DNA of 64,000 nucleotides. It comes from Candidatus Multivorans sp. Its GTDB lineage: Bacteria > Acidobacteriota > Thermoanaerobaculia > Multivoradales > Multivoraceae. Below are positions 9,559 to 64,000 of the stretch, one piece after another. Both the position numbers and the translations under genes were made by a program. Under the pieces are notes generated by a model. The model was not told the origin of the DNA. It saw only the letters and a list, made by a program, of their open reading frames with translations, and did not search any database. Positions within the stretch are counted from its first letter, which is position 1; each line of letters starts with the position of its first letter. The stretch is from positions 3,072,001 through 3,136,000 of the forward strand of contig OZ251997.1 in NCBI GenBank assembly GCA_965247095.1, given 5' to 3'.

Positions 9559-9588
9559 CGGGTCGCCCCCTGCCGACCGACCGGCTTC

Positions 9589-10476
9589 CTAGCTGATGAG
9601 CGGCAGCAGTTCCTCGGCCGAACGCCGGGTGAGCATCGTGTAGAACTCGTCGCTCAGCAGGTTGCTGCCGTGGTCTTCGATGAACTTCTTCTGCTCCGGC
9701 GTGATGTCGGTCGGTTCGGTTTCGACTGCCTCCGGGTAGCGGTTGGCCGGCGTGCGGTCGATCGGCGCCACGAACTCGACGGTCAGGGCGCCGTTGTAGC
9801 CGACCTCGCGTAGCGTCTCGACGATCGCCGCCCAGTCGAGCGCGCCCATGCCGGGGGCCATCCGGTTGCTGTCGGCGACGTGGAAGTCGACGAGACGGTT
9901 GCCTGCCTTGCGGATCGATCCCAGGAGGTCGTCGTCCTCCATGTTCATGTGGAAGGCGTCGAGGCAGACGCCGCAGTCCGGTCCCGTCGCTTCGGCGAGC
10001 GCCAGCGCCTGGTCGCCGCGGTTGATGAAGTAGGTTTCGAAGCGGTTGATCGGTTCGATCGCGATCAGCACGCCCGCGGCCTGACTGTGTTCGTAGATCT
10101 CGCGCATGCTCTCGACCGCCCACCGCCACTCGTTCTCGGGCGTCGAGTCGGGGTCGACCTTGCCGACCGTCCCGGGAACGACCGACATCTCGTGGCCGTC
10201 GAGTTCCTTGACCATCGTGATGCAGTCCTTGACGTACTGGATGGAGCTGGCGCGCTCGGCCTCGTCCCTGGCGATCAGGCTGCGGCCCTCCATCATCAGG
10301 GTCACGGAGCCCCAGCAGCGAATGCCGTAGCGCTTCAGCAGGGCGCCGACCTCGGCCGTCTCGTAGAGCTCGGGCTCCCCGCTGATCTCGAGCGACTCGT
10401 AGCCGAACTGCCGCAGACGCGCGAGGGTGTTCTCGAGCGGTTCCGCGCGCATCCAGTTGTGCATGGACAGGTGCAT
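9589..10476 (-). CDS. Sugar phosphate isomerase/epimerase (xylose-isomerase-like TIM barrel, ketose 3-epimerase family)
   Basis: EPINRFE, LDAFHMN, FHVADSNR..PG.G, LTVEF metal-binding motifs. Confidence 0.9.
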   Translation of the reverse strand: MHLSMHNWMRAEPLENTLARLRQFGYESLEISGEPELYETAEVGALLKRYGIRCWGSVTLMMEGRSLIARDEAERASSIQYVKDCITMVKELDGHEMSVVPGTVGKVDPDSTPENEWRWAVESMREIYEHSQAAGVLIAIEPINRFETYFINRGDQALALAEATGPDCGVCLDAFHMNMEDDDLLGSIRKAGNRLVDFHVADSNRMAPGMGALDWAAIVETLREVGYNGALTVEFVAPIDRTPANRYPEAVETEPTDITPEQKKFIEDHGSNLLSDEFYTMLTRRSAEELLPLIS

Positions 10477-10640
10477 GGCAGGTCTCCCGTTGGTGCGGGG
10501 GAAGATAGCAGCGTCACGGGAATCCTGGGCGGCAGCCAAGGATTGGCTCTCCCCGTGCGTCATACCCGTGAATGAGGATGGGAGACGCGGTGCATGTGGC
10601 CGTCGAAACCAGATGGGGTTCCCCTGCGGCGTGGTCTAGT

Positions 10641-11183
10641 GTGAAGGCCACTGTGAGAGGTGACGACGAGCTGGTTCGGGCGGCTGTGGCTGGCGACCGC
10701 GACGCCTTTGGCCACCTCCTGGAGCTCCACTACGACCGGATCTTCCGGTTCTGCTTCCGGCTGACCGGGCGCCGGGAGGAGGCAGAAGACCTTACGCAGG
10801 AAATCTGCCTCGCCCTGCCCGCGAAGCTTCAGAACTTCCGGGGCAAGGCCAAGCTGACGACCTGGCTCTATCGGATCGCCGCGAATGCGGCTCACGACCG
10901 TCGGCGCCGTGCCGCCAGCAGCGCCAAGGCTGCCGAGGGTTGGGGGGACTGGGAGGTGAACCGCCGTGCGGCGGCAACGGACAGGGCCGCGGATCTCGAC
11001 TGGCTGCGCCGCTCGATGACGGTCCTGCCGGACGATCTGCGCGACACGGCCGCGCTGACGCTCGACGGCGAGATGACCCATGCGGAAGCCGCCGAGGTGC
11101 TCGGAATCTCCGAAGGCACCGTCAGTTGGCGGCTGTCGGAAGTCCGCAAGCGCCTGCGCGCGATGCGGCAAGAGGAAGGATGA
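10641..11183 (+). CDS. ECF RNA polymerase sigma factor
   Basis: Region 2 (AEDLTQE, TWLYRIAAN) and region 4 (EAAEVLGISEGTVSWRLS); start uncertain (10572-10653). Confidence 0.92.
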   Translation: MKATVRGDDELVRAAVAGDRDAFGHLLELHYDRIFRFCFRLTGRREEAEDLTQEICLALPAKLQNFRGKAKLTTWLYRIAANAAHDRRRRAASSAKAAEGWGDWEVNRRAAATDRAADLDWLRRSMTVLPDDLRDTAALTLDGEMTHAEAAEVLGISEGTVSWRLSEVRKRLRAMRQEEG

Positions 11184-13375
11184 CGATGACCGATCCACTC
11201 GACGATCTGAAACGTGCGTTGGACCGTGCGACGCCCGAGCCCGATGCCGAACGGCGGAAGGCGAACATGGCCCGCGCGATGGAGCTCTTCGACCAGTCCC
11301 AAGAATCAGCGGCCGAGCCGCGTCGTACTCATGACCGCCTCACTACCTGGGCGGGTATCGGACATGGAGTACGACACATGCTTTCCACACTGACTTCTCG
11401 CCCCGCTGTGATCGCCGCTGCTGGCCTGGCCGCGGTCGGCTTCGCTGCTCTCTTCGTGGTCTTGAGCCGAGAGACCACGCCGCGCCCGGCCGAGGTTGTA
11501 GCAGAGGCCGACGCCTCGCCACCGGGCCCCTTGCCCTATGAACCGGAGTCGCTCCGCCTCCAGGAGCGGGAAGAGTTGGAGGTTGCGGAGATCGACATTC
11601 CGGAGGTCGACGATCTGGACCTGTTCGATCTTGCCCCTACCGAGCCGTCGCCCGCTCCCGTCGCTCCAGTCGAGGCGCTCCGCCGCCGACTCCAACCCGC
11701 TCCTGCGCCTCCTCCTCCTCCCGCGGCCGAGCCCCTGGAGGGAGCGATTACGGTGACCGCAGAGAGGCCCTTGGTCGATAGGTTCTCGGTGACCGCGGGG
11801 TCGCCGGTGGAGACTGAAACGCTGCCGCCGCCTGCGCCTGAACCCATGCAGCCAAGGCCTCGGCCGAGTGCCCTTTCCTCGCGTATGAAAGCGCTGGTTG
11901 CGGCGGACCCGTTCGTCGCGGGCGAGCTGGTAGTTCGAGCAGCTCCCCAACCGCGCAGCACAGAAGCCTTCGCCAACGAGCCGGCCAGCCCGCTCAAGAT
12001 TGCTGGCGAGGAACCCGTTTCGACCTTCTCGATCGACGTTGACACGGCCAGTTACTCCGTCGTCCGCTCTTCGTTGATGACCGGCTATCTGCCTGTGGCG
12101 GAGGCCGTGCGCGTCGAGGAGATGCTCAACTACTTCCCCTACGCGTATCCCGCGCCCGAGGCCGGCGGGGCGCCGTTCAGGCCGACCGTCACGGTGGCGC
12201 AGACGCCGTGGAACCCGGACACGCTGTTGATGCACATCGGCCTCCAGGGCCGGTTGCCGGCAACGGACGACCGGCCGCCGCTCAACCTCGTGTTCCTGAT
12301 CGACACGTCGGGCTCGATGAACCGGCCCAACAAGCTGCCGCTCCTGAAGCAGTCCTTCCGTCTGATGCTGGGCCAACTGCGGCCCGAGGACGAGGTTGCG
12401 ATCGTCACCTACGCCGGCAGCGCGGGTCGCCCGCTCGACGCGATTTCCGCCACCGAAAGGGGCGAGATCCTGAGTGCACTGGACCTCCTCAACGCCGGCG
12501 GGTCGACTGCCGGGGCGGCGGGCATCCAGTTGGCTTACCAGACGGCCGCGGGAATGGCGGCGGAGGGCGAGGTCACCCGCGTGATCCTGGCCACGGACGG
12601 CGACTTCAACGTCGGCATCTCGGACCCCGAGCAACTCAAGGACTTCATCGCCCGGCAGCGGGAGAACGGCATCTACCTCTCCGTCCTCGGCTTCGGCCGC
12701 GGCAATCTGGACGACGCGACGATGCAGGCCCTGGCCCAGAACGGCAACGGTCAAGCGTCGTACATCGACACGCTCGCGGAGGCCCAGAAGGTGCTGGTCG
12801 ACCAGCTCACCGGCACCCTGTTCCCGATCGCGGACGACGTGAAGATCCAGGTCGAGTTCAACCCTGCCGCGGTGGCCGAGTACCGGCTGATCGGGTACGA
12901 GACCCGCGCGCTGAGGCGCGAGGACTTCAACAACGACCGGGTCGACGCGGGCGAGATCGGGGCCGGCCACTCGGTGACCGCGATCTACGAAGTGACGCCG
13001 GTCGGTTCGCCTGCCGTGCTTCACGATCCTCTGCGCTACGCGGCGCCCGCGGCGGAGCCCCCGGGCGCCGGCGCGGACTCGCGGAGGTCCGGGGAGTTCG
13101 CCTTCCTCCGCCTGCGCTACAAGGCGCCGGGCGAGGACACGAGTCGCCTGATCGAAGTGGCGATCAACCGCGAGGCGGGCAATGCCGGCGCCGACCAGCG
13201 CTTTGCCGCCGCCATCGCCGGATTCGGCCAGCTCTTGCGGGGCGGCGTCTACACCGGCGACTGGTCTTACGCGGACGCGATTGCGCTAGCCGAGGCGAAC
13301 ACCGGCGGCGACCGGTACGGCTACCGCCGCGAGGCCGTGACCCTGATGCGTCTGGCCGAGAGTCTGAGCGAGTAG
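11180..13375 (+). CDS. Membrane-anchored VWA-domain protein (YfbK-like), probable anti-sigma partner
   Basis: ATGA overlap with sigma stop; TM helix; PVSTFSIDVDTASY, MIDAS DTSGS, ATDGDFNVG, YRLIGYETR, C-terminal DUF3520-like region. Confidence 0.9.
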   Translation: MTMTDPLDDLKRALDRATPEPDAERRKANMARAMELFDQSQESAAEPRRTHDRLTTWAGIGHGVRHMLSTLTSRPAVIAAAGLAAVGFAALFVVLSRETTPRPAEVVAEADASPPGPLPYEPESLRLQEREELEVAEIDIPEVDDLDLFDLAPTEPSPAPVAPVEALRRRLQPAPAPPPPPAAEPLEGAITVTAERPLVDRFSVTAGSPVETETLPPPAPEPMQPRPRPSALSSRMKALVAADPFVAGELVVRAAPQPRSTEAFANEPASPLKIAGEEPVSTFSIDVDTASYSVVRSSLMTGYLPVAEAVRVEEMLNYFPYAYPAPEAGGAPFRPTVTVAQTPWNPDTLLMHIGLQGRLPATDDRPPLNLVFLIDTSGSMNRPNKLPLLKQSFRLMLGQLRPEDEVAIVTYAGSAGRPLDAISATERGEILSALDLLNAGGSTAGAAGIQLAYQTAAGMAAEGEVTRVILATDGDFNVGISDPEQLKDFIARQRENGIYLSVLGFGRGNLDDATMQALAQNGNGQASYIDTLAEAQKVLVDQLTGTLFPIADDVKIQVEFNPAAVAEYRLIGYETRALRREDFNNDRVDAGEIGAGHSVTAIYEVTPVGSPAVLHDPLRYAAPAAEPPGAGADSRRSGEFAFLRLRYKAPGEDTSRLIEVAINREAGNAGADQRFAAAIAGFGQLLRGGVYTGDWSYADAIALAEANTGGDRYGYRREAVTLMRLAESLSE

Positions 13376-15709: not shown

Positions 15710-16636
15710 ATGGGGATTGTTGAAGAGTGGCATGAGTGCATGGACCGGGGTGAGGTTCTTCTTCTCGACGGTGGCACCGGGACGGAGCTGGAGCGCCGGG
15801 GGGTGCCGATGGACTCGGCGGCCTGGTGCGGAACAGCGGCGCTCGATCACAAAGACGCGATCCGAGACCTTCATGAGGAGTACATCCGGTGCGGCGCCGA
15901 CGCGATCATCACGAACACCTTCGCCACCCACCGGCCTCTGCTCGAAGCGGCGGGTCTTGGCGACCAGGTCGGGGTGATCGTGCGGCGGGCGGTGGAGGCG
16001 GCTCTTGAAGCACGGGAGCGGGCCGGTTGTCCCGGCGTGCTCGTTGCCGGTTCGCTGTCGACGATGCCGGCGAGCAACATTCGGGGCGGCTACGCACCGC
16101 TGGACGAACAGTCCGCGGCCTACCGGGAGCAGTGCCAGCTTCTGGCCGAAGCAGGAGTCGACGTCATCGCGCTCGAGATGATGCAGAATGGGGAGCGCTC
16201 TTCGCTCGCCTTCGAGGCGGCGAAGGAGACCGGCCTGCCGGTGTGGCTCGGCGTCAGCGCGCGCAAGGACTCAGGTACGGGCGCCATCACGCCGTTCGAT
16301 TGGCCGAACGAGTCGTTCGAGGCGTTGCTCGATGCGCTGATTCCGCTGGGTCCAAAGGTAGTGCATGTGATGCACACGGAGATCGCGGCGGTTCCCGAGG
16401 CGGTGGCGATGGTGCAGGAGCGTTGGCAGGGGCCGGTCGGCGTCTATCCCGAGTCGGGTTACTTCACGATGCCGAACTGGAACTTCGTCGAAGTGATCGA
16501 ACCGGCGGACCTGCTTGCGGAGGCCCGCGGCTGGGTGGCGGAAGGCGTTCAGATCGTGGGAGGCTGCTGCGGCCTGGGGCCGGAACACATCCGCGCGCTC
16601 GGAGCGCTGCGCGGGGCGGACGCCGGGGCGGCCTGA
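15710..16636 (+). CDS. Homocysteine S-methyltransferase family protein
   Basis: LLDGGTGTEL, GADAIITNTF, C-terminal IVGGCCG Zn motif. Confidence 0.9.
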   Translation: MGIVEEWHECMDRGEVLLLDGGTGTELERRGVPMDSAAWCGTAALDHKDAIRDLHEEYIRCGADAIITNTFATHRPLLEAAGLGDQVGVIVRRAVEAALEARERAGCPGVLVAGSLSTMPASNIRGGYAPLDEQSAAYREQCQLLAEAGVDVIALEMMQNGERSSLAFEAAKETGLPVWLGVSARKDSGTGAITPFDWPNESFEALLDALIPLGPKVVHVMHTEIAAVPEAVAMVQERWQGPVGVYPESGYFTMPNWNFVEVIEPADLLAEARGWVAEGVQIVGGCCGLGPEHIRALGALRGADAGAA

Positions 16637-17121
16637 TGGCAGCGGCAAAGGGCGAATCGGACCGGGCGCGGACGGCCTTCGAGCCGCCGCTGCTCATCCT
16701 CGCCAGCCTGCTTGTTTCCTTTGGGCTGTCGCGCTTCTTGCCGCTTCCCCTCTGGCCCGGCAGCCTCTCGAGGTTCGGCGAGGTCGCGGGCGTCGTGATG
16801 ATTCTCGGCAGCGTGGTGCTGATGACCTGGGCCGGTCTTTCGATGATGCGCGGCGGCGGCTCGCTGGCGGTGCACACTCCGACGGCGCGCCTGGTCGTGC
16901 GCGGCCCCTACCGCTTGACCCGGAACCCGATCTACACCGGCATGGTGTTGCTGCTTCTGGGCATCGGATTCGCCAGGGACAGTTGGTGGTACCTGGTCAT
17001 TGCCGTTGCCACGGCGATACTGCTCCGCTGGGGCGTGATCCTGCGCGAGGAGGCCTACCTGGAAGGCAAGTTCGGCGACGAGTACCGCGAGTATGCGAAC
17101 CGCGTCCGGCGCTGGCTCTAG
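16636..17121 (+). CDS. Isoprenylcysteine carboxylmethyltransferase (ICMT/PEMT) family membrane methyltransferase
   Basis: LVVRGPYRLTRNPIY, EEAYL..KFG.EY..Y...VRRW; TGATG overlap with the upstream gene. Confidence 0.88.
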   Translation: MAAAKGESDRARTAFEPPLLILASLLVSFGLSRFLPLPLWPGSLSRFGEVAGVVMILGSVVLMTWAGLSMMRGGGSLAVHTPTARLVVRGPYRLTRNPIYTGMVLLLLGIGFARDSWWYLVIAVATAILLRWGVILREEAYLEGKFGDEYREYANRVRRWL

Positions 17122-19489
17122 CCGTCGGCGTCTTCTGCTGGCGGCCATCGTGGCCTCGGGTCTGGCCGCTTGCGCCCCCGAACCGGAGGACGCGTCGCCC
17201 ACACCGGTTCAGGCGGACACTGCGCGCCTCCTCGCGGGCGCCTCGACGGCCCACCCGTCGGTCATCCTGATCACGATCGACACCCTGCGCGCCGACCGGC
17301 TGTCGAGCTACGGTTCCGATCGGGTTGCAACGCCTCACATCGACCGGCTGGGCGCCGAGGGCATTCGCTTCGCCAACGCGTCGTCGACGGTGCCGTTCAC
17401 GTTGCCGGCCCATAGCTCGATCATGACCGGGCTCTACCCGCCGTCCCACGGCGTGCGGGAGAACGTCGGCTACGTGTTGGGCGCGGATCGGACCACTCTC
17501 GCGGAGCGTTTCCGGGACGCCGGTTACAGCACCGGCGGCTTCGTCAGCGCCTTCGTGCTCGATGCGCGCTGGGGGATCGGCCGCGGCTTCGATACCTACG
17601 TCGACGATTTCGATCTCGACTCGATGGCCGGCGCGAACCTGGGCTCGGTCCAGCGCTCCGGGCCGGAGACGATCGCCCACGCGCTGGAGTGGCTGGACGG
17701 AGCGGTCTCTTCCGGCGACGGCGGCGCTGCCGGCGACACGAGCGGGCCGCCACCCTTCTTCCTGTGGCTGCACCTGTTTGATCCGCACGATCCGTACGAG
17801 CCGCCCGAACCGTTCCGGACCGAATACGAGGGACGGCCCTACGACGGCGAGGTGGCGTACACGGACTCGCTGATCGGCGACTTCCGGGCCGCGCTCGAAC
17901 AGCGCGGGTTGTTCGACGAGTCGGTCGTCGTCCTGACGGCGGACCACGGGGAGGGCCTCGGCGATCACGGCGAGAGCTACCACGGCTTCTTCGTCTACGA
18001 CTCCACCGTGCACGTTCCCCTGATCGTGCGGCTGCCCGGTGGGCTGGAAGACGGACGGGTAGTGGCTGACGTCGTGAGCCACGTCGACATCGCGCCGACG
18101 CTGGCCGAACTCATGGGCCTCGAGGGGGCCGGCGCCGGGCAGGGGCGGAGTCTGCTCCTGTCGATAGAGGGGCTGGAGGACCCGGCCACCGAGCGCGGCG
18201 TCTACGCCGAGTCGTTCTACGCCCTCGACCACTACGGCTGGGCGCCGCTTCGCTCGCTGCGCACGGTGGACTACAAGTACATCGAGACGCCCGACCCGGA
18301 GCTCTACGCCCTGCTGGAGGATCCGGGGGAACTGACGAACGTCCTGTTCGAACGGCGCGACACCTCCCGCGAACTGAGGGCCGCCGCCCTGGAACTGGCT
18401 GCCGAACTCGACCGCGGGGCGCCGGATGCAACGCCCGAGCCCGATCTGGACGAGCAGGCCCTGGCGCAGTTGCGTGCCCTCGGGTATCTCGCCGGCCGCG
18501 GCACAGCCGAAAGGCGGGAGGCGGAAGGGCCGCGCGCCGATGCCAAGACGAAGGCGCATCTCCACCGCGCGATCATGAGGGCGCAGAGCGCCTTCGGCGG
18601 CGGCGACGACGAGGCCGCGAACGCGGAACTGCGAGCGGCGCTCGCCGAGGACGACGGACTGCTCGACGCGCACCAGCTTCTGGGCACGATCACCCTTCTT
18701 GCCGGCGATCCGGCGCCGGCGGCTTCGCACTTCCAGCGCGCGCTGGCGCTCGACCCCGAGCACCGGCAGTCTCTGCTCGGGCTGGCCAACGCCTACCACG
18801 AGCTGGGCCGCATCGATGAGGCGATGGTCGGCTACCGGCGCCTGCTTGAGGTCGCGGGCCAGGACTCGAAGGCGACGATGGCCCTGGCTCGCATCCATGT
18901 TGAGCGCGGCGAGTTGAGCGAAGCCGAGGAAGTGCTCGCCGCTGCTGCCGAAGGTCGCGAGCCGCCGCCGGTGGTCACGAACAAGCTGGGCGAAGTGATG
19001 GCGCTCACGGGCCGGAGCGGCGAGGCGGAGGCGAAGTTTCGGCAGGCCATCGCCTCGAACCCGGAACTCGGCGAAGCGCACTACAACCTCGCGGTCTTGC
19101 TCGACGAGGCGGGGAAACCGTTCGAGGCGGTGGAAACGTACCGGCGGGCGGCGGAACTTCGGCCGCGGGACCATCGCCCGCGTTTCAATCTCGGCCGTCT
19201 CTACGGACGGTTGAACCGGCCCCTCGACCAGATCGAAGCCTATCGGGACGCGGTCGAGGCGGCGCCGGACTTCGTGCGCGGCTACTTCCATCTGGCAAAG
19301 GCCCTGATGGACCTTGACCTCGACCTGACCGAAGCGGAGGCGATCGCCCGCCGGGGTCTCGATCTGGCGCCGGCCGGCGAGGATGGCGCGCTCGGCTACT
19401 TCGTGCTCGCCGACATTCTGAGCCGGCTCGGCCGACCCGGTGAGGAGCGGCAGGCGCTGGCGCGCGGCCAGGAGCTGCTACAGCGCTAA
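17093..19489 (+). CDS. Sulfatase-like hydrolase with C-terminal TPR repeats (lipoprotein)
   Basis: LAAC lipobox; ITIDTLRAD, TLPAHSSIMTG, HLFDPH, ADHGE; TPR helices after ~aa 470. Confidence 0.9.
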   Translation: MRTASGAGSSRRRLLLAAIVASGLAACAPEPEDASPTPVQADTARLLAGASTAHPSVILITIDTLRADRLSSYGSDRVATPHIDRLGAEGIRFANASSTVPFTLPAHSSIMTGLYPPSHGVRENVGYVLGADRTTLAERFRDAGYSTGGFVSAFVLDARWGIGRGFDTYVDDFDLDSMAGANLGSVQRSGPETIAHALEWLDGAVSSGDGGAAGDTSGPPPFFLWLHLFDPHDPYEPPEPFRTEYEGRPYDGEVAYTDSLIGDFRAALEQRGLFDESVVVLTADHGEGLGDHGESYHGFFVYDSTVHVPLIVRLPGGLEDGRVVADVVSHVDIAPTLAELMGLEGAGAGQGRSLLLSIEGLEDPATERGVYAESFYALDHYGWAPLRSLRTVDYKYIETPDPELYALLEDPGELTNVLFERRDTSRELRAAALELAAELDRGAPDATPEPDLDEQALAQLRALGYLAGRGTAERREAEGPRADAKTKAHLHRAIMRAQSAFGGGDDEAANAELRAALAEDDGLLDAHQLLGTITLLAGDPAPAASHFQRALALDPEHRQSLLGLANAYHELGRIDEAMVGYRRLLEVAGQDSKATMALARIHVERGELSEAEEVLAAAAEGREPPPVVTNKLGEVMALTGRSGEAEAKFRQAIASNPELGEAHYNLAVLLDEAGKPFEAVETYRRAAELRPRDHRPRFNLGRLYGRLNRPLDQIEAYRDAVEAAPDFVRGYFHLAKALMDLDLDLTEAEAIARRGLDLAPAGEDGALGYFVLADILSRLGRPGEERQALARGQELLQR

Positions 19490-20346
19490 TCGCCCGCCAG
19501 CGCCCGGGCCGTCAACTCCGCCAAGCGCCGCGGGTTCTCCAGCGGCCCGAGATGATCGAGGTCCTCGACCTCCAGGAAGTTGACGTTCGGCAGTTCGTTA
19601 ACAATCGCCTCGGCCCAGTACGCGGGCCCGGGCGTGAGCACGGCGCCGCGCATCAGGGCGACCGGGCAGTGCACTTCGGTCAGGGTATCCCAGGCGAGGT
19701 GGTGGGGCCCCATCAGGTAGAGCTGGGCTTCGACATCGGGCCGGCACTTGATCTCGACCGTGCCGTCAGGCCGGTCGGCGAAGCCGTGCCGGACGTAGGC
19801 CTCCAGGGCGGCCGGGTCGAACAGCGAGTAGGGCATCTTCGACGCGAAGTTGGCGATGGCGGCCTCGAACGAGTCGAAGCGGCTGCGACGGTTCCTGGTT
19901 CGTGCGACCCAGACGTCCAGGCGCGCGTCGTCGTCCGTCACGCCCGGCGGATAGATCACCGGCTCGTAGCAGACCAAGCCGGCGAAGAGGCCCGGTCGTC
20001 GCGGCTCAGCCATCAGCAGGGCGGCCGCGCCCATGGAGTGGCCGAAGCCGAACAGCGGTTCTTCGGTATCCAGTTCGAGCGTGTCGACTACGGCCAGCAG
20101 ATCGTCGGCGCAGCTCTCCCAGCGGTAGTCCAGACCGTCCGGGGCGGGCGCGTCGCCGTGGCCCCGAAGATCGACGCTGATCCGGCGATAGCCGTCGAGC
20201 CGAGCGAGCATGGGGTCGTACACCCGTCCATGGAACCCGGTCGCATGGCCGGCAAGGAGGGTCGGTCCGTCGCCGCCGTAGTCGTAGACGGCGAGTTCGA
20301 CGCCGTCGGTCGACGGGACACGGTGGACGGAGACCGGTTCGAGCAT
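19486..20346 (-). CDS. Alpha/beta hydrolase
   Basis: HATGFHG, DLRGHG, GHSMG, DHLGPLE. Confidence 0.88.
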   Translation of the reverse strand: MLEPVSVHRVPSTDGVELAVYDYGGDGPTLLAGHATGFHGRVYDPMLARLDGYRRISVDLRGHGDAPAPDGLDYRWESCADDLLAVVDTLELDTEEPLFGFGHSMGAAALLMAEPRRPGLFAGLVCYEPVIYPPGVTDDDARLDVWVARTRNRRSRFDSFEAAIANFASKMPYSLFDPAALEAYVRHGFADRPDGTVEIKCRPDVEAQLYLMGPHHLAWDTLTEVHCPVALMRGAVLTPGPAYWAEAIVNELPNVNFLEVEDLDHLGPLENPRRLAELTARALAGD

Positions 20347-55036: not shown

Positions 55037-55990
55037 CTATGCCCGCTCGCCCGCGTCGTCAATCGGCCCGCCAGTCACCAGACGCGCCTCGACCGGGACG
55101 GCGGGATAGAGGTTGCCGCGATCGCCTGCCACGAAGGCGTAGACGCGGATCCCGGCCAGATGGGCGATGTCCAGCGCCAGACTGGACGGCGCTCCAACGG
55201 CGGCAATCAGTGGCACGCCGGCGACCGCCGCCTTCTGGACGATCTCGAAGCCGAGGCGTCCGCTGACCGCCAGGATCGTCGAGTCCAAGGGCAGCCGGCC
55301 GGCCTGAAGCGCCCGGCCGACGACCTTGTCGGCCGCGTTGTGGCGGCCGATGTCCTCGTAGAGCCACAGCAGCTCGGCGCGCTGGTCGTCGACTTCGAAC
55401 AGGGCGGCTGCGTGAACGCCGCCGGTGTCGTCGAACAGTTCCTGGCGACCCCTCATCGCGGCCGGCAGTTCCCGGACGAGCGAGCGTTCACGGTCCGGCG
55501 CCAGGTCGAGCGGCCGGATCGCCGGCAGCCGCACCCACAGGTCCTCGAGCGAGGGCTTGCCGCAGACGCCGCAGGCGCTCGTGACGCGGAACGCGCGTTC
55601 GCGCTTGCCGGCATCTTTCCGTTGGCCGGTCCGCCGGCGTCCTGCCGCCGAGAGCCGGATGTCGACGATCGAGCCGGGGACCAGGGTCGGCTCGTCGTCG
55701 GCCGGAACCGCTGGCTGCCCGTCGGAGCGGGTGGCGGCGCCGGCGGCGACGTCGGCCACGTCCGCGGCGTCTTCGATCCAACCCTCGGCGTACAGGTATC
55801 CCAGGGCCAGTTCCACCTCGGCGCCCGGGCTGCGCATGGTGATGACGAGGGGTTCTCCGTCGACCCGGATCTCCAGCGGCGCCTCGACCGCCACCAGGTC
55901 GCATCGCACATCGCCCTCGCCGCGCTCGACCAGGGCCTCACGGGCCGCGGCGCGTCCGGCCCCGTCAGCCGCCGGGCGGTCAGCCGCCAT
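55037..55990 (-). CDS. fdhD: Formate dehydrogenase accessory sulfurtransferase
   Basis: VEAPLEI, TMRSPG, SACGVCG, TGGVHAA, EDIGRHNAADK. Confidence 0.94.
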   Translation of the reverse strand: MAADRPAADGAGRAAAREALVERGEGDVRCDLVAVEAPLEIRVDGEPLVITMRSPGAEVELALGYLYAEGWIEDAADVADVAAGAATRSDGQPAVPADDEPTLVPGSIVDIRLSAAGRRRTGQRKDAGKRERAFRVTSACGVCGKPSLEDLWVRLPAIRPLDLAPDRERSLVRELPAAMRGRQELFDDTGGVHAAALFEVDDQRAELLWLYEDIGRHNAADKVVGRALQAGRLPLDSTILAVSGRLGFEIVQKAAVAGVPLIAAVGAPSSLALDIAHLAGIRVYAFVAGDRGNLYPAVPVEARLVTGGPIDDAGERA

Positions 55991-58196
55991 GTGCGGCGCC
56001 CGCCCGTTCGATCCGCACCCGCACGCCGTATTCGGGCTCGCCCGAATCGGGGTCCAGCGACCAAGGCAGCAACTCCATGCACTCCGGCCAGTGCGCCTCG
56101 ACGTTGCCCGCCTTGATCGGTTGGAAGCGCGCCACCAGTTCGATCTGCGACACGGGAGACGAGACGACCACGCGGTCGCCGTCCGCGATCCCCCGGATAC
56201 GACCGTCCTCGGCGTTCATCAGCAGGTCGGAACGTTCGAGCCCTGTCAGGGCATCGCGCCCGTGATGGACCATCGAGTTGAACTGGCGGCCCCGGCGGGT
56301 CGAAAGAAAGAGCTCGCCATCCTCGAGACCGCGCTCCGCGGGCGGTTCGACGGCGTGGAAGCCGGCTCGGCCCGAGGGGGTCGCGAAGCGTCCATCCTCG
56401 AACAGGCGAGGACCGCCCCACTGGAACTGGTCGCCCTTCCGCTTCAGGTGCTCGATGCCGGCGTAGCGCGGTTCGGCGCGTGCGATCTCGTCGCGGATTG
56501 CTGCCGTGTCCGCGAAGTCGAGGGCGCCTCGCGGCTCGGGCCGGACCCTGGAGACGATCTCGCACAGCACCTCCCACTCCGGGCGGCATTCGCCCAGCCG
56601 CCGCGCCTCGGCGCCCCCGTAGTCGATCGGCGGCGAGTAGACGATCCGCCTCTCCGTCGTCGTCTCCGTCACGCCTCCGGGGATCTCGTAGCGGGTCGTC
56701 GCCGGCAGCAGAAGCACGGTGTCGCTCGGCTCGACCAGCATCGCGCCGTTGAGCACGATGTCCTGGTGGATCCGGAGCCTGGGCCGGTGCAGCGCACGCT
56801 CGATCCGTTCCCGGTCGGGCGTCGTTTCCAGGAAGTTGCCGCCGAGTAGCCAGAACGCGTCGATGTCTCCGGCCGCCGCCGCGGCGATCTGGCCGGTCGC
56901 GGCCAGTCCGGGACCGCGCGGGGGCTCGAAACCCCAGACACCGGCCCAACGGTCGAGCGTCTGCGCTTCGGTCACCGGCGCGCAGCCGACCTCGGAACCG
57001 CCCTGGACGCCGGAATGGCCGCGGATCGGAACCAGGCCCGCGCCGGGACGGCCCGGGAGGCCGCGCATCAGGCCGAGGTTGCAGATCGAGAGCACGGTGT
57101 CGACGCCGTGGCGGTGCTGGGTCAGCCCCATCGACCAGACCAGGATCGTCTTCGGCTTGGAGCAGAGAAGTGCCGCGAAACGCTCCATCTCGGCGCGCGA
57201 GGCGCCGCTCGAGCTCTCGAGCTCGGACCAGGCGGTTCCTCTCAGCGCCGCCTCGACCTCGGCGAAGCCCTCGGTGGAGCGTTCGACGAAACCGCGCGCG
57301 ACGCCTCCGGGCAGATCGAGCAGGGCCTTCATCGTGCCGTTCAGGAAGGCGAGGTCGCCGCCGGTGTCGACCGCGAACCAGTGCTGCGCCAGGTCGGTGC
57401 CGAACAGGGCGCTCGAAGGGACCGACGGCACCCAGTAGCGCTTGAGGCCGGGCTCGCGATACGGGTTGACGACCGCGATCTCGGCGCCCCGGCGGCGCGC
57501 GAAGTGGAGATACTTGATCGTCACCGGCTGGTTGTTCGGCACGTTCGAGCCGAAGAACACGATCAGGTCCGCGTCGAGCCAGTCGCGGTAGGAGTTGGTC
57601 GCGGCGCCGAATCCCAGCGCGCGATGCAACGCCACCGTGGAGGCGGCGTGGCAGAGGCGGGCAGCGGTGTCTACGTGGGGCGTACCGAGGAAGCGGGCGG
57701 CCTTCTGCGCCACGTAGTACGTCTCGTTGGGAATGCCGCGCGAGGTCAGGAAGAAGGCCGCCCGCGTGGGGTCGCGCTGCCGGACTTCCGCGAGCCTGGA
57801 CGCCGCGATGTCGGTCGCCTCGGGCCAGCCGATCCGCCGGAACCCTGGCTCTCCGGCCCGTCGCAGCATCGGGTGAGCGAGGCGTCCCAGACCGCGCAGC
57901 GCCGTCGAGCCGCGAGCGGCGAGAGCGTCGGCGTCGGCGAGGACGGCCGGGTCGAGGGCCGGCATCGTGTTCAGCCGCAGCAGATCGAGACGCACCATGC
58001 ACAGGTGGACTCCGTCCAGTGTCCAGTCGCGCAAACCCGAAGTGCCCAGCGCGCAGCCGTCGCAGACCCCGTCGCGCAGGATGCGCCACGCGTAGCCGGC
58101 CTCATCCCGGTTCCGCCACGCCACCTTCCCCATCTCCAGGAAGTGGTGCGGCTTGGTTTGCCCCAGGCCGAAGGGGATCCTGGAACCGGGGCTCAC
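55980..58196 (-). CDS. FdhF/YdeP-family molybdopterin oxidoreductase
   Basis: GVCDGCALG, ARLCHAAS (Cys ligand), PIRGHSGVQG, STRRGRQFNS. Confidence 0.92.
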   Translation of the reverse strand: MSPGSRIPFGLGQTKPHHFLEMGKVAWRNRDEAGYAWRILRDGVCDGCALGTSGLRDWTLDGVHLCMVRLDLLRLNTMPALDPAVLADADALAARGSTALRGLGRLAHPMLRRAGEPGFRRIGWPEATDIAASRLAEVRQRDPTRAAFFLTSRGIPNETYYVAQKAARFLGTPHVDTAARLCHAASTVALHRALGFGAATNSYRDWLDADLIVFFGSNVPNNQPVTIKYLHFARRRGAEIAVVNPYREPGLKRYWVPSVPSSALFGTDLAQHWFAVDTGGDLAFLNGTMKALLDLPGGVARGFVERSTEGFAEVEAALRGTAWSELESSSGASRAEMERFAALLCSKPKTILVWSMGLTQHRHGVDTVLSICNLGLMRGLPGRPGAGLVPIRGHSGVQGGSEVGCAPVTEAQTLDRWAGVWGFEPPRGPGLAATGQIAAAAAGDIDAFWLLGGNFLETTPDRERIERALHRPRLRIHQDIVLNGAMLVEPSDTVLLLPATTRYEIPGGVTETTTERRIVYSPPIDYGGAEARRLGECRPEWEVLCEIVSRVRPEPRGALDFADTAAIRDEIARAEPRYAGIEHLKRKGDQFQWGGPRLFEDGRFATPSGRAGFHAVEPPAERGLEDGELFLSTRRGRQFNSMVHHGRDALTGLERSDLLMNAEDGRIRGIADGDRVVVSSPVSQIELVARFQPIKAGNVEAHWPECMELLPWSLDPDSGEPEYGVRVRIERAGAAHGG

Positions 58197-58256: not shown

Positions 58257-60083
58257 ATGGCGCTCAAGAACTTGCTCAAGCCACTGCTTTTTCTGCCTGC
58301 CGCGGCCACGCTCTCGGCGGTCATCCTGCTGGGCGTCTCACCGACGGCGGTGGCACAGGGCCGCCGCGCGGCTGCCGCGGCTGTTGAGACATCGCCTGCC
58401 TTCGGCCCGGAGAACTTCGCCGCCGCGGTCGATCCTCGAACCGACGGCTGGGACACCGAGGCGCTCAGCGAGCAGGCCGAGGCGCAGCTCAAGCGCGTCG
58501 CGGTGTGGCTTGTGGGCGGCGCGGCCGCGGTGTCGCCGGGTGCGTTGGATGAAGTGGTTGACGAGACGTTCGAGACCCGGGGCTTCGTCCCCGATGAGTT
58601 GATCGAGCGCTACTCCGGTCCGGCTTTCACCGTGACTACCGGCCACCCTGACCGCGCAGCCTATCGGGGCGGCGAGGGCTTCCTGGAGGCGCTTCGCGCG
58701 TTGGGCGAGCGCCTGGCTGGCAACGGACCGCCGCGGGCCGACTTCAAGCTCTTCACGATCGACGGAGGCGCGTCGGGCTTCACCACCCGCTCCTACTTCG
58801 AGGCGTCGGTCTCCGGTGCCGCGCGCCACCGCCAGTTGAACGCGGTCTGGACGACGACCTGGACGTTGGCTGAGGACGGCGCGGGCGAGCCGCTCCTGCG
58901 CACGGTCGAGGTCGGCGACTACGAGGAGACTTCCGCGGCCGGAGGGGCCCTGTTCGTCGACGTCACCGAAGCCGCCGTCGGTCACAACCCGAGCTACCGG
59001 GAACAACTGCTGCAGCCGCCGGACGCCTGGCTCAACCGGATCACCAAGGCGGCTGGCTACAACAAGACGGGATGGCAGGGCGTGTCCGTCGCCGACGTCA
59101 ACGGCGACGGACTGGACGACATCTTCCTGCCCGAGCAGGGCGGACTGCCGAACCGCCTCTACGTTCAGAAGCCGAACGGCACGTTCGACGACCGTTCGGC
59201 CGCGGCGGCGGTCGACTACCTGGAACGCGCCCTCGCCGGGCTGTTCGTCGATCTCGACAACGACGGCGACCCGGACCTGGTGCTCTCCAGCCGGCCGGCG
59301 GTCCTGGTGCTCGAGAACGACGGCGACGGCGGTTTCGCCCGGGTGCGCCACATCGCGGGCGACATTCCCGACAGCAACTCGCTGTCTGCGGCCGACTACG
59401 ACGGCGACGGCGACCTCGACCTCTACGTCTGCGCCTACCGCCGCGCCTACGACGAGCGCGGGGTGGCGAGCCCGGTGCCGTACCACGACGCGAACAACGG
59501 CGGCCGCAACGTGCTGCTGCGCAACGACGGCGGGTTCCGGTTCGTCGACGCGACGGCCGCGGCGGGGCTCGACCGCAACAACCGCCGCTTCAGTCTGGCG
59601 GCGTCCTGGGAGGACTACGACGGCGACGGCGACGCGGACCTCTACGTGGCGAACGACTACGGCCGCAACAACCTGTACCGCAACGGCGGCGGCTCGTTCG
59701 TCGACGTGGCGGGGGATGCCGGAGTCGAGGACATCTCCTCCGGCATGTCGGTGAGTTGGGCCGACTACAACCGCGACGGCCGCATGGATGTCTACGTCGG
59801 CAACATGTTCTCGGCCGCCGGCAACCGGATCACCTACCAGCGGAAGTTCGAGCGCGACCGGCAGCGCGCCGGTCCGCTGGCGGAGGTCCAGCGGATGGCG
59901 CGCGGCAACTCGCTGTTCGCGGGCACAGGCGGGGGAGGGTTCGTCGACCGGAGCGTCCAGGCCGACGTGACGATGGGCCGGTGGTCGTGGTCGTCGGTGT
60001 TCGCCGACATCAACAACGATGGCTGGGAGGATCTGGTCGTAGCCAACGGCAACCTGACCCAGATCCTCCCGGACGATCTGTGA
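58257..60083 (+). CDS. FG-GAP/VCBS (CRTAC1-like) repeat protein; N-terminal part of a predicted read-through selenoprotein 58257-62555
   Basis: Signal peptide; six DxDxDGxxD-type repeats; ends at TGA 60081-60083 that is in frame with the next ORF. Confidence 0.85.
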   Translation: MALKNLLKPLLFLPAAATLSAVILLGVSPTAVAQGRRAAAAAVETSPAFGPENFAAAVDPRTDGWDTEALSEQAEAQLKRVAVWLVGGAAAVSPGALDEVVDETFETRGFVPDELIERYSGPAFTVTTGHPDRAAYRGGEGFLEALRALGERLAGNGPPRADFKLFTIDGGASGFTTRSYFEASVSGAARHRQLNAVWTTTWTLAEDGAGEPLLRTVEVGDYEETSAAGGALFVDVTEAAVGHNPSYREQLLQPPDAWLNRITKAAGYNKTGWQGVSVADVNGDGLDDIFLPEQGGLPNRLYVQKPNGTFDDRSAAAAVDYLERALAGLFVDLDNDGDPDLVLSSRPAVLVLENDGDGGFARVRHIAGDIPDSNSLSAADYDGDGDLDLYVCAYRRAYDERGVASPVPYHDANNGGRNVLLRNDGGFRFVDATAAAGLDRNNRRFSLAASWEDYDGDGDADLYVANDYGRNNLYRNGGGSFVDVAGDAGVEDISSGMSVSWADYNRDGRMDVYVGNMFSAAGNRITYQRKFERDRQRAGPLAEVQRMARGNSLFAGTGGGGFVDRSVQADVTMGRWSWSSVFADINNDGWEDLVVANGNLTQILPDDL

Positions 60084-60121
60084 AGCTTCTTCTGGCGGCA
60101 GGTCGTGCCGCGTGCGCCCAG
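60081..60121 (+). promoter_or_regulatory. In-frame UGA plus putative bacterial SECIS element
   Basis: TGA-AGCTTCTTCTG-GCGGCA-GGTCG-TGCCGC: perfect 6-bp stem with G-led loop starting 18 nt after UGA; resembles E. coli fdhF GCAGGUC apical loop. Confidence 0.72.
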
Positions 60122-62555
60122 AGCCCTCGATGACGGCGCGCCCGATGACCGCTCGTTGGCGCCGTATCTCGAATCCCTGCGCGCGCTCCACGAGCGGCTG
60201 GACGAGGGGTTGTCCTTCAGCGGCAACGAACGGAACTGCGTCTTCCTGAACCCCGGCCGGGCGGGCGGCGCCTTCGCCAACGCCTCGGCGGTGAGCGGCC
60301 TGGACTTTCCGGACGACGGCCGCGGCGTCGCCTTCCTCGACCTGGAGGGCGACGGCGACCTGGATGTGGCGATCAGCAACCGAACCGCGCCCCGGCTGCG
60401 GCTGATGCGCAACGAGCTGCCCTCGGGCGACCGCTTCGTCGCGCTGCACCTCGAAGGCGACGGCACCGGCACCAACCGCGACGCGGTCGGCGCCCGGGTC
60501 GAGCTTGAGACGACAGAAGGCGCCTTGCGGCGCTCGGTGCGCGCCGGCGAGGGCTTCCTCTCCCAGTCCAGCCGCTGGCTGCACTTCGGCCTCGGCGACG
60601 CCGAACCGACGGGTACGGCGATCGTTCACTGGCCGGGCGCCGGCCGGGAGACGTTCGGCGGCATCGCGGCCGGCGGCCGCTACCGGATTGTCCAGGGCAG
60701 CGGCCGGGCGGCGCCGGCGCCGGTGCGCAGGCGGCAGTCAGCCCTCGAACCGGGCGAGCAGCAGCCCCCGGCGCCGACCACGGGCGCCCGGGTCGTGCTG
60801 GCGCCGCGGCCGCCTTCGCCGCAGCTCTCGATGCGACCCTTCGGCGCCGCGGAGACGCTGCCGATCGCGATCGGACGGGGTCGGCCGGTGCTGCTCAACA
60901 TCTGGGCGAGCTGGTGCGCTCCCTGCCGGTCAGAGCTGCTCGACCTGACGCGGGAGGAGGACGCGCTACGCGCCGCCGGGCTCGAGATCGCGGCGCTGTC
61001 GACCGACGGACTGGGCGACGTGCCGACCACGACCGAGGAGTCGGCCCGGAAGTTCATGGACGAGGTCGGCTTCCCGTTCTCTAGCGGGATGGCGACCGAA
61101 GAGACCCTCGACAAGGTCGAGATCGTCAAGCGCTCGCTGTTCGACCGCCGCTTCCCGCTGTCGCTGCCGTTCTCCATGCTGATCGACGGCGAGGGCCGGG
61201 TCGCCGTTCTCTACCGTGGCGGTGTGACCGCCGGCGATCTTCTGGCCGACCTCGAACTGCTCGACGCGCCGCGCTCCACGCTGCGGGCGGCCTCCGCGCC
61301 GATTGCCGGCCGCTGGTTCACCGAGCCGCCGGACGAGGTGTCGCTGGCCAGCTACGCGCGCTGGTTCGAGGATCGGTTCCCCGCGGAATCCGTGGACCTC
61401 CTGCAACGGTCGGTGGAGGTGGAACAGGCGCGGCTGGACGGCAGCCGGGCGGACGGCGGTGGGAGAGCCTCGTTCGAGCAGCGCGGTGCGCGGGACCGGC
61501 TGTTCAAGTCGCTCCAGCGGTTGGCGGTGATCGAGAGCCGGCGCGGAGACAACCGGGCCGCCGTCCGTCACGCGCGCGCCGCACTGGACCTCGAACCGGA
61601 CGATCCGGGTGCGCGGATGGCCTACCAGAACGCCCTGGTGGACGCCGGCGACGTGGACCAGGTACGTGCCGAGGCGGAGGCGGCGCTGGCCGCGGATCCC
61701 GGCAATGTCGCGGCGCGGGTGCGCTTGGCCGAACTCCTGGACAGCGAAGGGCTAACGGAGGCCGCGGCAGATGAACTCGGTCGCGCCGTGGAGCAGAGCC
61801 CCGACGACGTAGAACTCCGCTATCTCTACGGCCAGTTGCTCGGCAAGCTGGACCGGCTGCCTTTGGCGATGGAGCAGTTCGCTGCGGTCGTCGACCGCGA
61901 TCCGCGCCACGTCGAGGCGCACCGGATCCTGGCCGTCGCGGCGGTCCGCAGCGGCTACCCGGAGGCGGCTGGGGCCCACTACCGTGCGATCCTCGCGGTG
62001 GCGCCCAGGGATGTCGACGCTCTCTACGGCGCCGCCCAGGTTGCGGCGGGGTCGGGCCGTCTGGAGGAAGCGGTGGAGGGATACCGGTCGCTTCTGGAGC
62101 ACGACCCCAATCACGCTGCCGGCCGCCACGAACTCGGGTTGACTCTTCTGCGTAGCGGACCCGAGGGCGCTATGGAGGGCACGGATCACCTGCGGCGCGC
62201 GTACGTTGAGGACGAGCGCCTGCTCGCACGGGGCAACGACCTCGCCTGGACCCTGGCAACCGATCGCGACAGCCGCCGCCGGGACGGCCAGCTCGCTCTG
62301 ATCATCGCGCTCGAGCTGAACGCAGTCGCCGGCGGCGAAGAGCCGGCCCTGCTCGAGACCCTGGCCGCAGCCCAGGCCGAGACCGGCGACTTCGACGCTG
62401 CGGTGCGAACGATCGAGACCGCCCTGGAGGCCATCCGCGGCGCGTCGGGGCGGCGGCAGGCCGCGCCGGCGTACCGGGAGCGGCTGCTTGAGCTTCTGAA
62501 CCGGAGACTGGAGCAGTACCGGCAGGGCATTCCGGTGCGGTCGGGCCGGCCATGA
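60105..62555 (+). CDS. ASPIC/UnbV + TlpA-like thioredoxin (WCAPC) + TPR protein; C-terminal part of the predicted selenoprotein
   Basis: SFSGNERN, seventh FG-GAP repeat DLEGDGDLD, NRDAVGARV..GEGFLSQSSRWLHFGLG, NIWASWCAPC, TPRs, NDLAWTLAT. Confidence 0.85.
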   Translation: MPRAPRALDDGAPDDRSLAPYLESLRALHERLDEGLSFSGNERNCVFLNPGRAGGAFANASAVSGLDFPDDGRGVAFLDLEGDGDLDVAISNRTAPRLRLMRNELPSGDRFVALHLEGDGTGTNRDAVGARVELETTEGALRRSVRAGEGFLSQSSRWLHFGLGDAEPTGTAIVHWPGAGRETFGGIAAGGRYRIVQGSGRAAPAPVRRRQSALEPGEQQPPAPTTGARVVLAPRPPSPQLSMRPFGAAETLPIAIGRGRPVLLNIWASWCAPCRSELLDLTREEDALRAAGLEIAALSTDGLGDVPTTTEESARKFMDEVGFPFSSGMATEETLDKVEIVKRSLFDRRFPLSLPFSMLIDGEGRVAVLYRGGVTAGDLLADLELLDAPRSTLRAASAPIAGRWFTEPPDEVSLASYARWFEDRFPAESVDLLQRSVEVEQARLDGSRADGGGRASFEQRGARDRLFKSLQRLAVIESRRGDNRAAVRHARAALDLEPDDPGARMAYQNALVDAGDVDQVRAEAEAALAADPGNVAARVRLAELLDSEGLTEAAADELGRAVEQSPDDVELRYLYGQLLGKLDRLPLAMEQFAAVVDRDPRHVEAHRILAVAAVRSGYPEAAGAHYRAILAVAPRDVDALYGAAQVAAGSGRLEEAVEGYRSLLEHDPNHAAGRHELGLTLLRSGPEGAMEGTDHLRRAYVEDERLLARGNDLAWTLATDRDSRRRDGQLALIIALELNAVAGGEEPALLETLAAAQAETGDFDAAVRTIETALEAIRGASGRRQAAPAYRERLLELLNRRLEQYRQGIPVRSGRP

Positions 62556-63262: not shown

Positions 63263-64000
63263 CATTGCTGTCCCACAAACTTCAGAGTAGAGCGAGTTGA
63301 GTTCGCGTGTTGTTCGGGTCGGGTGGTCCGCTCGGAGGTTCGAAGAGGTCCAGCAGCGATCTTCGGTCGAACAGGTTGAGTTGCAGAAGGCGCAGGATCC
63401 GGCTCATGCTCCAGGACATCTTGTTGACGAACTTCAGGTAGGCGAGCAGGAGATGGACGCACACGGCGATCCAGATCTGCGTCATGACCGCGTTGGGCGA
63501 GGCGCCGACGAAACTCTTGATGCGCAGGTTCTGTTTGATCCACTTGAAGAAGAGCTCGACCTGCCAGCGCGCCTTGTAGATGTCCGCGATGGTCTTCGGG
63601 GCGAGGCTGAAGTTGTTGGTCAGGAACTTGTAGTGCCGGCCCGTCTCCGGGTCGCGATAGCCGACCCGACGCAACGGAATCGGGCACCGCTTGCGCCCCT
63701 TGACGCTGGTCAGCTCGATGGTCTGGTCCGACGTCACGCCCCGGCCGCGAGCGAACGAGCGCCGCTCCCGAACCGCGTACTTGACCTTGCGCTTCAGGCG
63801 GGTGACCAGGAAAACCCCTTGTGCATCAAGGTCCTTTAGCCATCCGAAGTCGAGGTACAGACGGTCCGCCGCCACGATGCTCCCCTTCGGAAGACGAAGC
63901 GACCGGGCCACCTCGAGGTCCGAGCCCTTGCCGTCGGTGACGTGCAGGAACGACGGCAGACAGCCCTCGTGGTCGAGACCCACGTGCAGCTTCAACGCAC
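63263..64000 (-). mobile_element. IS4-family insertion sequence, one end (partial)
   Basis: Terminal CATTGCTGTCCCA at 63263 just downstream of the transposase stop. Confidence 0.85.
63282..64000 (-). CDS. IS4-family DDE transposase (5' part outside window)
   Basis: KLHVGLD, AADRLY, FLTNN, YKARWQVELFFKWIKQNL (YREK motif). Confidence 0.95.
   Translation of the reverse strand, partial: ALKLHVGLDHEGCLPSFLHVTDGKGSDLEVARSLRLPKGSIVAADRLYLDFGWLKDLDAQGVFLVTRLKRKVKYAVRERRSFARGRGVTSDQTIELTSVKGRKRCPIPLRRVGYRDPETGRHYKFLTNNFSLAPKTIADIYKARWQVELFFKWIKQNLRIKSFVGASPNAVMTQIWIAVCVHLLLAYLKFVNKMSWSMSRILRLLQLNLFDRRSLLDLFEPPSGPPDPNNTRTQLALL

Follow-up and report, generated by a model that had tools for sequence, protein, structure and literature searches.

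Positions 58257-62555 of the 64,000-nucleotide (nt) stretch of Candidatus Multivorans sp. analysed here (Acidobacteriota; contig OZ251997.1, positions 3,072,001 to 3,136,000 of the forward strand; hereafter the window) very probably constitute, as judged from sequence comparison, a single gene for an exported selenoprotein of 1432 residues, with UGA609 decoded as selenocysteine (Sec) via a hairpin resembling the Sec insertion sequence (SECIS). The gene appears as two open reading frames (ORFs), 58257-60083 (608 amino acids, aa) and 60105-62555 (816 aa), which lie in one frame and are broken solely by TGA 60081-60083, just as a first-pass annotation of this DNA had described. The readthrough translation has 1432 residues, with U609 in the context ..ILPDDL-U-SFFWRQVV... 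Since the gene's own terminal stop is also a TGA, general reassignment of this codon is not the case.

58257-62555, forward strand: whole selenoprotein gene, two same-frame ORFs joined by the internal TGA (Sec609), with a terminal TGA
60081-60083, forward strand: Sec codon TGA (U609), at a conserved column and at the start residue of helix 609-619 in the AlphaFold2 (AF2) model
60095-60111, forward strand: hairpin resembling bacterial SECIS elements (bSECIS), with a 6-bp stem GCGGCA/TGCCGC and a 5-nt loop GGTCG, beginning 11 nt after the TGA

Conservation of the TGA codon

When the genomes of the family were searched in six frames, the match had a single internal TGA, within an open frame of ~1400 aa, in all 41 other genomes of the same genus, and likewise in five genomes from other genera. 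The TGA occupies the identical column, between DDL and SFFWRQVV, in 39 of 40 family loci, and the exception (L055) was later put there by local alignment. In a phylum sample of 401 genomes, 80 had a match at E <= 1e-40; one or more TGA forms are present in 57 of these, and sense-codon forms alone in the remaining 23. Among the 62 loci of this sample, TGA is at the column in 47, a sense codon in 14, and one locus was unalignable. Among these 47 is a shorter paralog class (~920-1030 aa, 34-43% identity, motif K-D-T-U-S-x-F-W-R-[HQ]-V-V), which has the same core without tetratricopeptide repeats (TPRs). Ten more loci with TGA at the column come from metagenome-assembled genomes (MAGs) titled Planctomycetota, Phycisphaerae, Roseibacillus, Akkermansiaceae, Verrucomicrobiales and uncultured bacterium, and an eleventh (L184) is doubtful. 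The first-pass annotation had read the codon as Sec609 and looked to homologs for a conserved TGA, which is indeed kept at the exact column in loci of the genus, the family, the phylum and other phyla. Neither TAA nor TAG was found at the Sec column in any locus examined.

In addition, the residues at the column were compared across 142 sequences. U is found in 63, S in 16, D in 14, E and C in 10 each, G in 7 and A in 5, followed by the rarer L (4), H (4), Y (3), Q (3), N (2) and P (1); Cys therefore accounts for 10 of the 79 sense-codon homologs and Trp for none. The first-pass annotation had named a conserved TGA or Cys at this position as the thing to look for; the TGA is conserved, but in the majority of sense-codon homologs the residue is Ser, Asp, Glu or Gly and not Cys. 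The signature of the split gene is also seen in protein databases. When 1.84 billion cluster representatives were searched exhaustively with residues 610-830 as the query, 1382 proteins were returned at E <= 1e-30; 142 of the best 150 representatives were newly returned, and 131 of these 142 start 1-43 residues past the Sec column, the pattern that, at the level of protein sequences, marks a gene divided at its TGA. Generic FG-GAP patterns, used to scan named genome records, returned mostly distant CRTAC1-like proteins. Generic bacterial CRTAC1-like proteins differ from the family in being without the FWR helix motif and in having I, V, M, L or F where the family has the Sec column. Three unpublished genomes entered the comparisons (G105 with locus L073, a Sec form; G208 with locus L063, a Ser form; and G080, used in the selA tally only), and no claim hangs on these alone.

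The stretch around the TGA also stands out in metagenomes, where contig depth spikes in the 41-nt bin 60074-60114 (937 vs ~63 in X5 and 207 vs ~34 in X9) and where the TGA-plus-hairpin stretch is matched, at 88% identity or above, by many contigs that stem from other organisms. A small share (0.05-0.08) of the words of the 64,000-nt window occurs in two metatranscriptome runs with the label 'sponge metagenome'; this is not evidence of a habitat.

The SECIS-like hairpin and the selenocysteine machinery

bSECIS elements are constrained to a stem of 4-16 bp, a loop of 3-9 nt with G in the first two loop positions, a UGA-to-loop distance of 16-37 nt and a minimum free energy of at most -7.5 kcal/mol (PMC13188914, Fig. 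2 legend). The hairpin at 60095-60111 falls within all four constraints, with 6 bp, a GGUCG loop, 17 nt from UGA to loop and -10.0 kcal/mol when folded alone. Its conservation is seen at the level of codons as well as base pairs. Across 36 loci from the same genus, a degenerate codon has on average 0.125 minor synonymous codons over codons +1 to +9 (eight codons, a single TTT), compared with 5.07 over -30 to -1 and 6.7 over +10 to +40, and this synonymous freeze stops precisely where the stem ends on its 3' side. When 55 Sec forms (52 distinct) are aligned without gaps, 84% of the stem cells are paired, vs 76.3% in shuffles (0 of 500 reach 84%) and 25-68% with the partner slid. Compensatory changes are found at the fourth stem pair, which among the 52 distinct sequences is CG in 24, GC in 7, GU in 6, UA in 4, AU in 3 and other in 8; the covarying bases are the third of the Arg codon and the first of the codon after Val-Val (Pro, Ser, Ala or Thr). 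Moreover, all six pairs are formed in 37 of 57 Sec forms vs 1 of 17 sense-codon homologs encoding a near-identical peptide. The TGA and the hairpin recur together in dozens of genomes, which exceeds what chance would give. We infer from these alignments that the hairpin is under RNA-level selection and is SECIS-like, in agreement with the SECIS claimed in the first-pass annotation. A possible lower pairing CTGG/CCAG, also proposed there, was rejected because codons +10 and +12 vary freely in the 36 same-genus loci. An E-value scan of 59900-60300 against Rfam gave only a chance microRNA match (E 2.4), and no Rfam model recognises the element.

A known counterpart of this arrangement is in fdhF of Escherichia coli, encoding formate dehydrogenase H, which the first-pass annotation had cited correctly. 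The fdhF gene of MG1655 has an in-frame TGA, an 11-nt spacer and the hairpin GGTTGCA-GGTC-TGCACC, and shares with the gene at 58257-62555 the short stem closed by A-U, the loop beginning GGUC and the heptamer GCAGGTC. The fdhF SECIS has a bulged U, and none was seen in the hairpin at 60095-60111, which differs in its 5-nt loop and perfect stem. The two proteins are unrelated, the Sec of the fdhF product being a molybdenum ligand in a cytoplasmic enzyme (PMC13188914, section 7).

The source genome, a single contig of 4.62 Mb, encodes the machinery for Sec insertion. Profile scores of 260 bits for selD, 339 bits for selB and 439 bits for selA, and of 74 bits for a tRNA-Sec with anticodon TCA, are all above the curated cut-offs, which settles positively the presence of selA, selB, selD and selC that the first-pass annotation had left to be looked up. 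The selD match sits in an 854-aa open frame and is possibly a fusion. The genome also contains a UGSC-family selenoprotein gene with an in-frame TGA (149.9 bits vs a cut-off of 125 for NF041046):

G000:C1:3057605-3058165 (L215), reverse strand, ~14 kb ahead of the window start: UGSC selenoprotein gene, identified by NF041046

Its hairpin has 8 bp (GTCGTGCA-GTG-TGCACGAC) and begins 11 nt after its TGA, as in the gene under study, and it serves as an internal positive control showing a Sec system in use in the same organism. The UGSC protein itself differs in being small (~150-aa profile), with Sec in a UGSC motif, and its hairpin differs in the 8-bp stem and GUG loop. A crude whole-genome scan for a TGA plus hairpin, which is not a full selenoproteome, gave 48 candidates, of which 8 have loops of the GGT or GT type; of these 8, the gene at 58257-62555 and the UGSC gene are plausible and the other 6 look like off-frame noise. 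Across the phylum sample, 53 of the 57 genomes with TGA forms have selA, and the other four (G137, G283, G370 and G308) have selB above the cut-off. Five genomes that have homologs but gave no match to selA (G155, G225, G262, G272 and G360) have sense-codon forms only.

These data also bear on other ways of reading the TGA. Readthrough by a near-cognate tRNA (Trp or Cys) or another recoding event, with the hairpin acting as a stimulator and not as a SECIS, is very improbable. The genomic data do speak to continued translation only and by themselves do not name the inserted residue. Nevertheless, the hairpin fits bSECIS in spacing, loop and energy and resembles that of fdhF, the UGSC gene of the same genome has the equal 11-nt spacing, every one of the 57 genomes with TGA forms has selA or selB, and the column of the sense-codon homologs is devoid of Trp and contains Cys in a minority.

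Less probable still is a true stop, by which a 608-aa propeller fragment and an 816-aa protein with ASPIC, thioredoxin and TPR domains would be made separately and the hairpin would couple termination to reinitiation. The two halves are listed separately in public gene calls, and a GTG lies 21 nt past the TGA. Against this, no Shine-Dalgarno-like sequence precedes the GTG and the downstream half lacks its own signal peptide, both as the first-pass annotation had noted. The conserved SFFWRQV lies upstream of any start codon, the sense-codon homologs are single full-length proteins, and TGA is the only stop ever seen at the column. A stop at 609 would also cut the propeller in two, because in the AF2 model strands of the propeller both precede and follow residue 609, in line with the first-pass claim that one propeller would be split. 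A sequencing or assembly error or a recent pseudogene has a negligible probability: contigs from three other studies bridge 60081-60083 and carry the TGA, with no difference listed there, the codon recurs in all the other genomes of the genus, both halves are conserved as protein across phyla, and nothing was found in favour of this explanation.

Several observations weigh against decoding of UGA609 as Sec. The fold of 66 nt around the site is no more stable than its shuffles (z = 0.23), so thermodynamics alone proves nothing and the case rests on the relatives. About a third of the Sec forms (17 to 20 of 57) use other hairpins in a shifted register. Because 301 of the 401 genomes of the phylum sample have selA, its co-occurrence with the TGA forms is weak evidence on its own. 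Evidence of expression is weak and does not extend to the whole gene, the contigs of a single metatranscriptome run covering only 59502-60063 and 60075-60107. The Sec position lacks the classic pairing of Sec with Cys, S, D and E being commoner than C or equal to it, and the residue is dispensable for the role of the sense-codon homologs because S, D, E, C, G, A and others occur there.

Domain architecture and the possible role of Sec609

According to Pfam matches and structure models, the protein consists of a signal peptide, an NTF2-like domain, a CRTAC1-like FG-GAP propeller, a UnbV/ASPIC domain, a ResA/TlpA-like WCxPC domain and TPRs:

58257-58355, forward strand: predicted signal peptide, residues 1-33, MALKNLLKPLLFLPAAATLSAVILLGVSPTAVA, assigned by eye (basic n-region, hydrophobic core, AVA-Q)
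58407-59051, forward strand: NTF2-like/SnoaL-like N-terminal domain, ~residues 51-265 (AF2 and Foldseek)
59079-60416, forward strand: FG-GAP beta-propeller, ~residues 275-720, broken by the Sec-bearing helical insertion (Pfam and AF2)
60081-60203, forward strand: two-helix propeller insertion, residues 609-619 and 632-649, motif U-S-F-F-W-R-Q-V-V (DSSP of the AF2 model)
60483-60683, forward strand: UnbV_ASPIC domain, residues 743-809 (Pfam PF07593, 2.6e-14)
60876-61220, forward strand: ResA/TlpA-like thioredoxin-fold domain, residues 874-988 (Pfam AhpC-TSA 4.4e-8, Redoxin, Thioredoxin_8)
60915-60926, forward strand: active site C887-A-P-C890 (W-C-x-P-C), 60903-60932 being translated to WASWCAPCRS
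61509-62171, forward strand: TPR region, ~residues 1085-1305 (Pfam TPR_19, TPR_14, TPR_17, TPR_2 and others)

Lipobox-like N-termini are found in two relatives. Pfam gave no match over the NTF2-like N-terminal domain; its AF2 model (residues 36-275; predicted local distance difference test score, pLDDT, 85.4) is NTF2-like/ketosteroid-isomerase-like, and Foldseek against PDB matched it to ketosteroid-isomerase/NTF2-like folds with template modelling (TM) scores, normalised to the target, of up to 0.79. The propeller and the UnbV_ASPIC domain after it are both above the Pfam gathering scores, with FG-GAP_3 at 1.2e-40 and FG-GAP at 1.3e-25 and repeats found ahead of the TGA. For residues 270-1010, an alignment of 56 rows gave an AF2 model with a pLDDT of 91.4 and a predicted TM score of 0.88. 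In this model, DSSP assigns helices H340-350 and H363-380 between strands E323-328 and E392-395; H340-350 corresponds to residues 609-619, of which U609 is the first residue. W613 of the same helix is invariant in alignment A2.

The best PDB match of the 270-1010 model is murine CRTAC1 (9etn_A; E 5.4e-26, TM (target) 0.71, 603 aligned columns, 19% identity), which shares the FG-GAP propeller followed by UnbV_ASPIC; Sec, NTF2-like, thioredoxin and TPR domains are not reported for CRTAC1. Animal CRTAC1 has a C-terminal EGF-like domain, and no EGF family was among the Pfam matches of the 1432-aa protein, which is a bacterial relative of the CRTAC1 fold and not a CRTAC1 ortholog. The thioredoxin domain is close to ResA (TM (target) 0.82-0.86, with 0.85-0.86 for 2f9s/1st9), with TlpA, CcmG and DsbE also matched, and shares with these exported proteins the W-C-x-P-C motif. 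It falls well short of the NCBIfam equivalog cut-offs for TlpA (43.2 bits vs 230), ResA (34.9 vs 170) and DsbE (28.2 vs 123), and thus lies outside the family by its sequence scores, while its fold and active site are of TlpA/ResA type. ResA and TlpA are membrane-anchored single-domain proteins, whereas the counterpart here is an internal domain. Selenoproteins with an exported TlpA/ResA-like domain are already catalogued, namely a UGC-containing TlpA family and a ResA-like family with WAxxUGC, NF041054 (Table 1, PMC13188914). In these, Sec lies inside the thioredoxin motif, whereas in the protein encoded at 58257-62555 the thioredoxin motif is WCAPC without a TGA and Sec lies in the propeller insertion, and the NF041054 score is 28.9 bits vs a cut-off of 300.

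How Sec and the thioredoxin domain might work together can be outlined as follows. When the ribosome meets UGA at codon 609, the hairpin would recruit SelB with Sec-tRNA(Sec), Sec would be inserted and translation would continue. At the start of its helix, Sec609 would be a low-pKa selenolate, serving an enzyme outside the cytoplasm as its redox or nucleophilic centre. The selenenic acid or selenenylsulfide formed after turnover could be reduced by the protein's own WCxPC domain, which would draw its electrons via a DsbD/CcdA-type membrane protein, and the TPR or NTF2-like parts may hold a substrate or partner. Provided that Sec is inserted, such an intramolecular Sec/dithiol relay, which the first-pass annotation had put forward as possible and in which the selenolate of U609 is recycled by the WCxPC domain of the same chain, is in our view nearly an even call. 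Neisseria PilB/MsrAB has an exported catalytic module that a fused TlpA-like domain, supplied by DsbD, recycles. This is a working analogy only, as the catalytic folds are unrelated and no Msr domain is among the Pfam matches of the 1432-aa protein.

The relay is consistent with the likeness of the fold to ResA, TlpA and CcmG, which are reducing extracytoplasmic thioredoxins, and elsewhere the genome encodes a DsbD_TM domain (DsbD/CcdA-type membrane domain). The joint occurrence of Sec and an intact CxxC supports it indirectly. Among 100 sequences with enough sequence to judge, a CxxC lies 230-330 residues downstream of the column in all 33 Sec forms vs 22 of 67 others. Ten full Sec ORFs have few other Cys, and their CxxC lies 246-266 residues after U (262-266 in nine of them); in the protein under study, Sec609 and C887 are 278 residues apart in sequence. 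Furthermore, 125 of 126 long-enough downstream-half representatives from the exhaustive search have a CxxC, mostly W-C-x-P-C. Cys661 (NERNC) was considered as a nearby resolving Cys and was rejected, other Sec forms having V, N or R there. Three results speak against the relay: a CxxC is retained in many sense-codon forms as well (22 of 67); a phylogenetically controlled independent-pairs test of Sec against CxxC, based on 6 pairs (4.4 in the same direction, 0 opposite, median p 0.125), agrees in direction but is underpowered; and no conserved neighbour gene hinting at a substrate was found in 17 neighbourhoods of 16-20 kb, where only the family itself recurs.

The main functional rival to the relay, which we regard as unlikely, is that Sec609 is a ligand for a metal or metalloid (Cu, Zn, Hg or similar) in binding, chaperoning or detoxification, with the TlpA-like domain keeping the ligand reduced, much as copper sites are prepared by TlpA. 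Most residues at the column (C, S, D, E, H, Y, N and Q) are possible ligands, and the fold matches include solved structures in which TlpA is bound to the copper chaperone ScoI or to cytochrome oxidase subunit II (4txo, 4txv). Several catalogued selenoproteins bind metal, which counts in its favour as well (Table 1, PMC13188914). However, no second conserved ligand residue was found: in the search for Sec-specific partner residues, the sole column passing the filter was S655 (60219-60221, in the loop S-F-S-G-N-E-R-N), with Ser in 95% of Sec forms vs 26% of sense-codon forms. G and A also occur at the column, and no conserved metal-related genes lie nearby. The usual N-cap residues of helices are S, D, N and G, so the spectrum at the column needs no metal; it would suit a position at which chemistry is important only where Sec or Cys is present.

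In a FastTree phylogeny of the propeller-ASPIC region, Sec forms are found on the deepest branches and throughout the tree. The tree requires no fewer than 16 switches between U and non-U, at least 8 of them forced by well-supported branches. Since the root of this tree was not inferred, that Sec is ancestral and was often lost is a reading and no result. It enters a broader proposal that is tentative, and that we consider somewhat more likely to fail in one part than to hold as a whole: a very large, unrecognised family of exported propeller selenoenzymes, first exemplified by the gene at 58257-62555 and missed by Sec/Cys screens, in which ancestral Sec was repeatedly lost to N-cap residues with the CxxC decaying alongside, and which is maybe a main reason why Sec machinery is kept in marine and other Acidobacteriota without a Sec formate dehydrogenase. 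If this joint proposal holds, the propeller selenolate recycled by a built-in TlpA-like domain would represent a new extracytoplasmic selenium chemistry. The source genome has complete Sec machinery, no formate dehydrogenase FdhA of the TIGR01553 (selenocysteine) type at E <= 1e-20, and the propeller protein and the UGSC protein as the only plausible selenoproteins of the crude scan.

The family among bacterial selenoproteins and its genomic context

Comparison of the sequences with published collections indicates that the proteins are a new, large family within the bacterial selenoproteins. No FG-GAP, VCBS, ASPIC or CRTAC1 entry is present in the 2026 catalogue of 119 selenoprotein families and subfamilies (PMC13188914, Table 1), and NCBIfam release 20.0 has no model for the family, upholding the first-pass view that this is not a classic selenoprotein family. 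The main text of PMC12013277, PMC13326102, PMC2398784, PMC9402790 and PMC9312934 contains no such words, an annotation that is unpublished or held in databases only being possible. A literature search linking selenoprotein or selenocysteine to FG-GAP, ASPIC, CRTAC1 or VCBS returned nothing relevant.

The prediction that standard annotation would call two genes was likewise correct. The close public relatives are ~800-aa ORFs named 'tetratricopeptide repeat protein', a name that hides a selenoprotein of 1000-1400 aa, and gene callers break one gene into two at no fewer than 96 loci. The family is present in 57 of the 401 sampled Acidobacteriota genomes and also in MAGs titled as Planctomycetota and Verrucomicrobiota lineages. 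The family would widen the range of known Sec contexts, because its Sec sits on an extracytoplasmic beta-propeller and not on a thioredoxin fold. It also reveals a blind spot of searches for Sec/Cys pairs, because Sec is mostly replaced in it by residues other than Cys.

Within the window, the gene is flanked by a divergent molybdopterin oxidoreductase gene on the reverse strand (55980-58196; PF00384, PF01568), starting 60 nt from the selenoprotein start, in which neither a match to the Fe4S4 N-terminal domain nor an internal TGA was seen. Downstream lies a DDE transposase gene on the reverse strand (63282-63995; PF01609), cut by the window end. These neighbours are uninformative on function. 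In G077, a genome of another family, the split selenoprotein gene (L230, G077:C1, 7924-11103) is followed after a gap of 437 nt by selA (11540-12940) on the same strand, and in G231, of the same genus as G077, selA lies ~4 kb downstream. Finally, locus L216 (G012:C139) contains ORF pairs of the family at 4096-8036 (reverse strand), 8059-12285 (forward strand) and 16081-19756 (reverse strand) within 20 kb, suggesting tandem paralogs, each split by gene calling.

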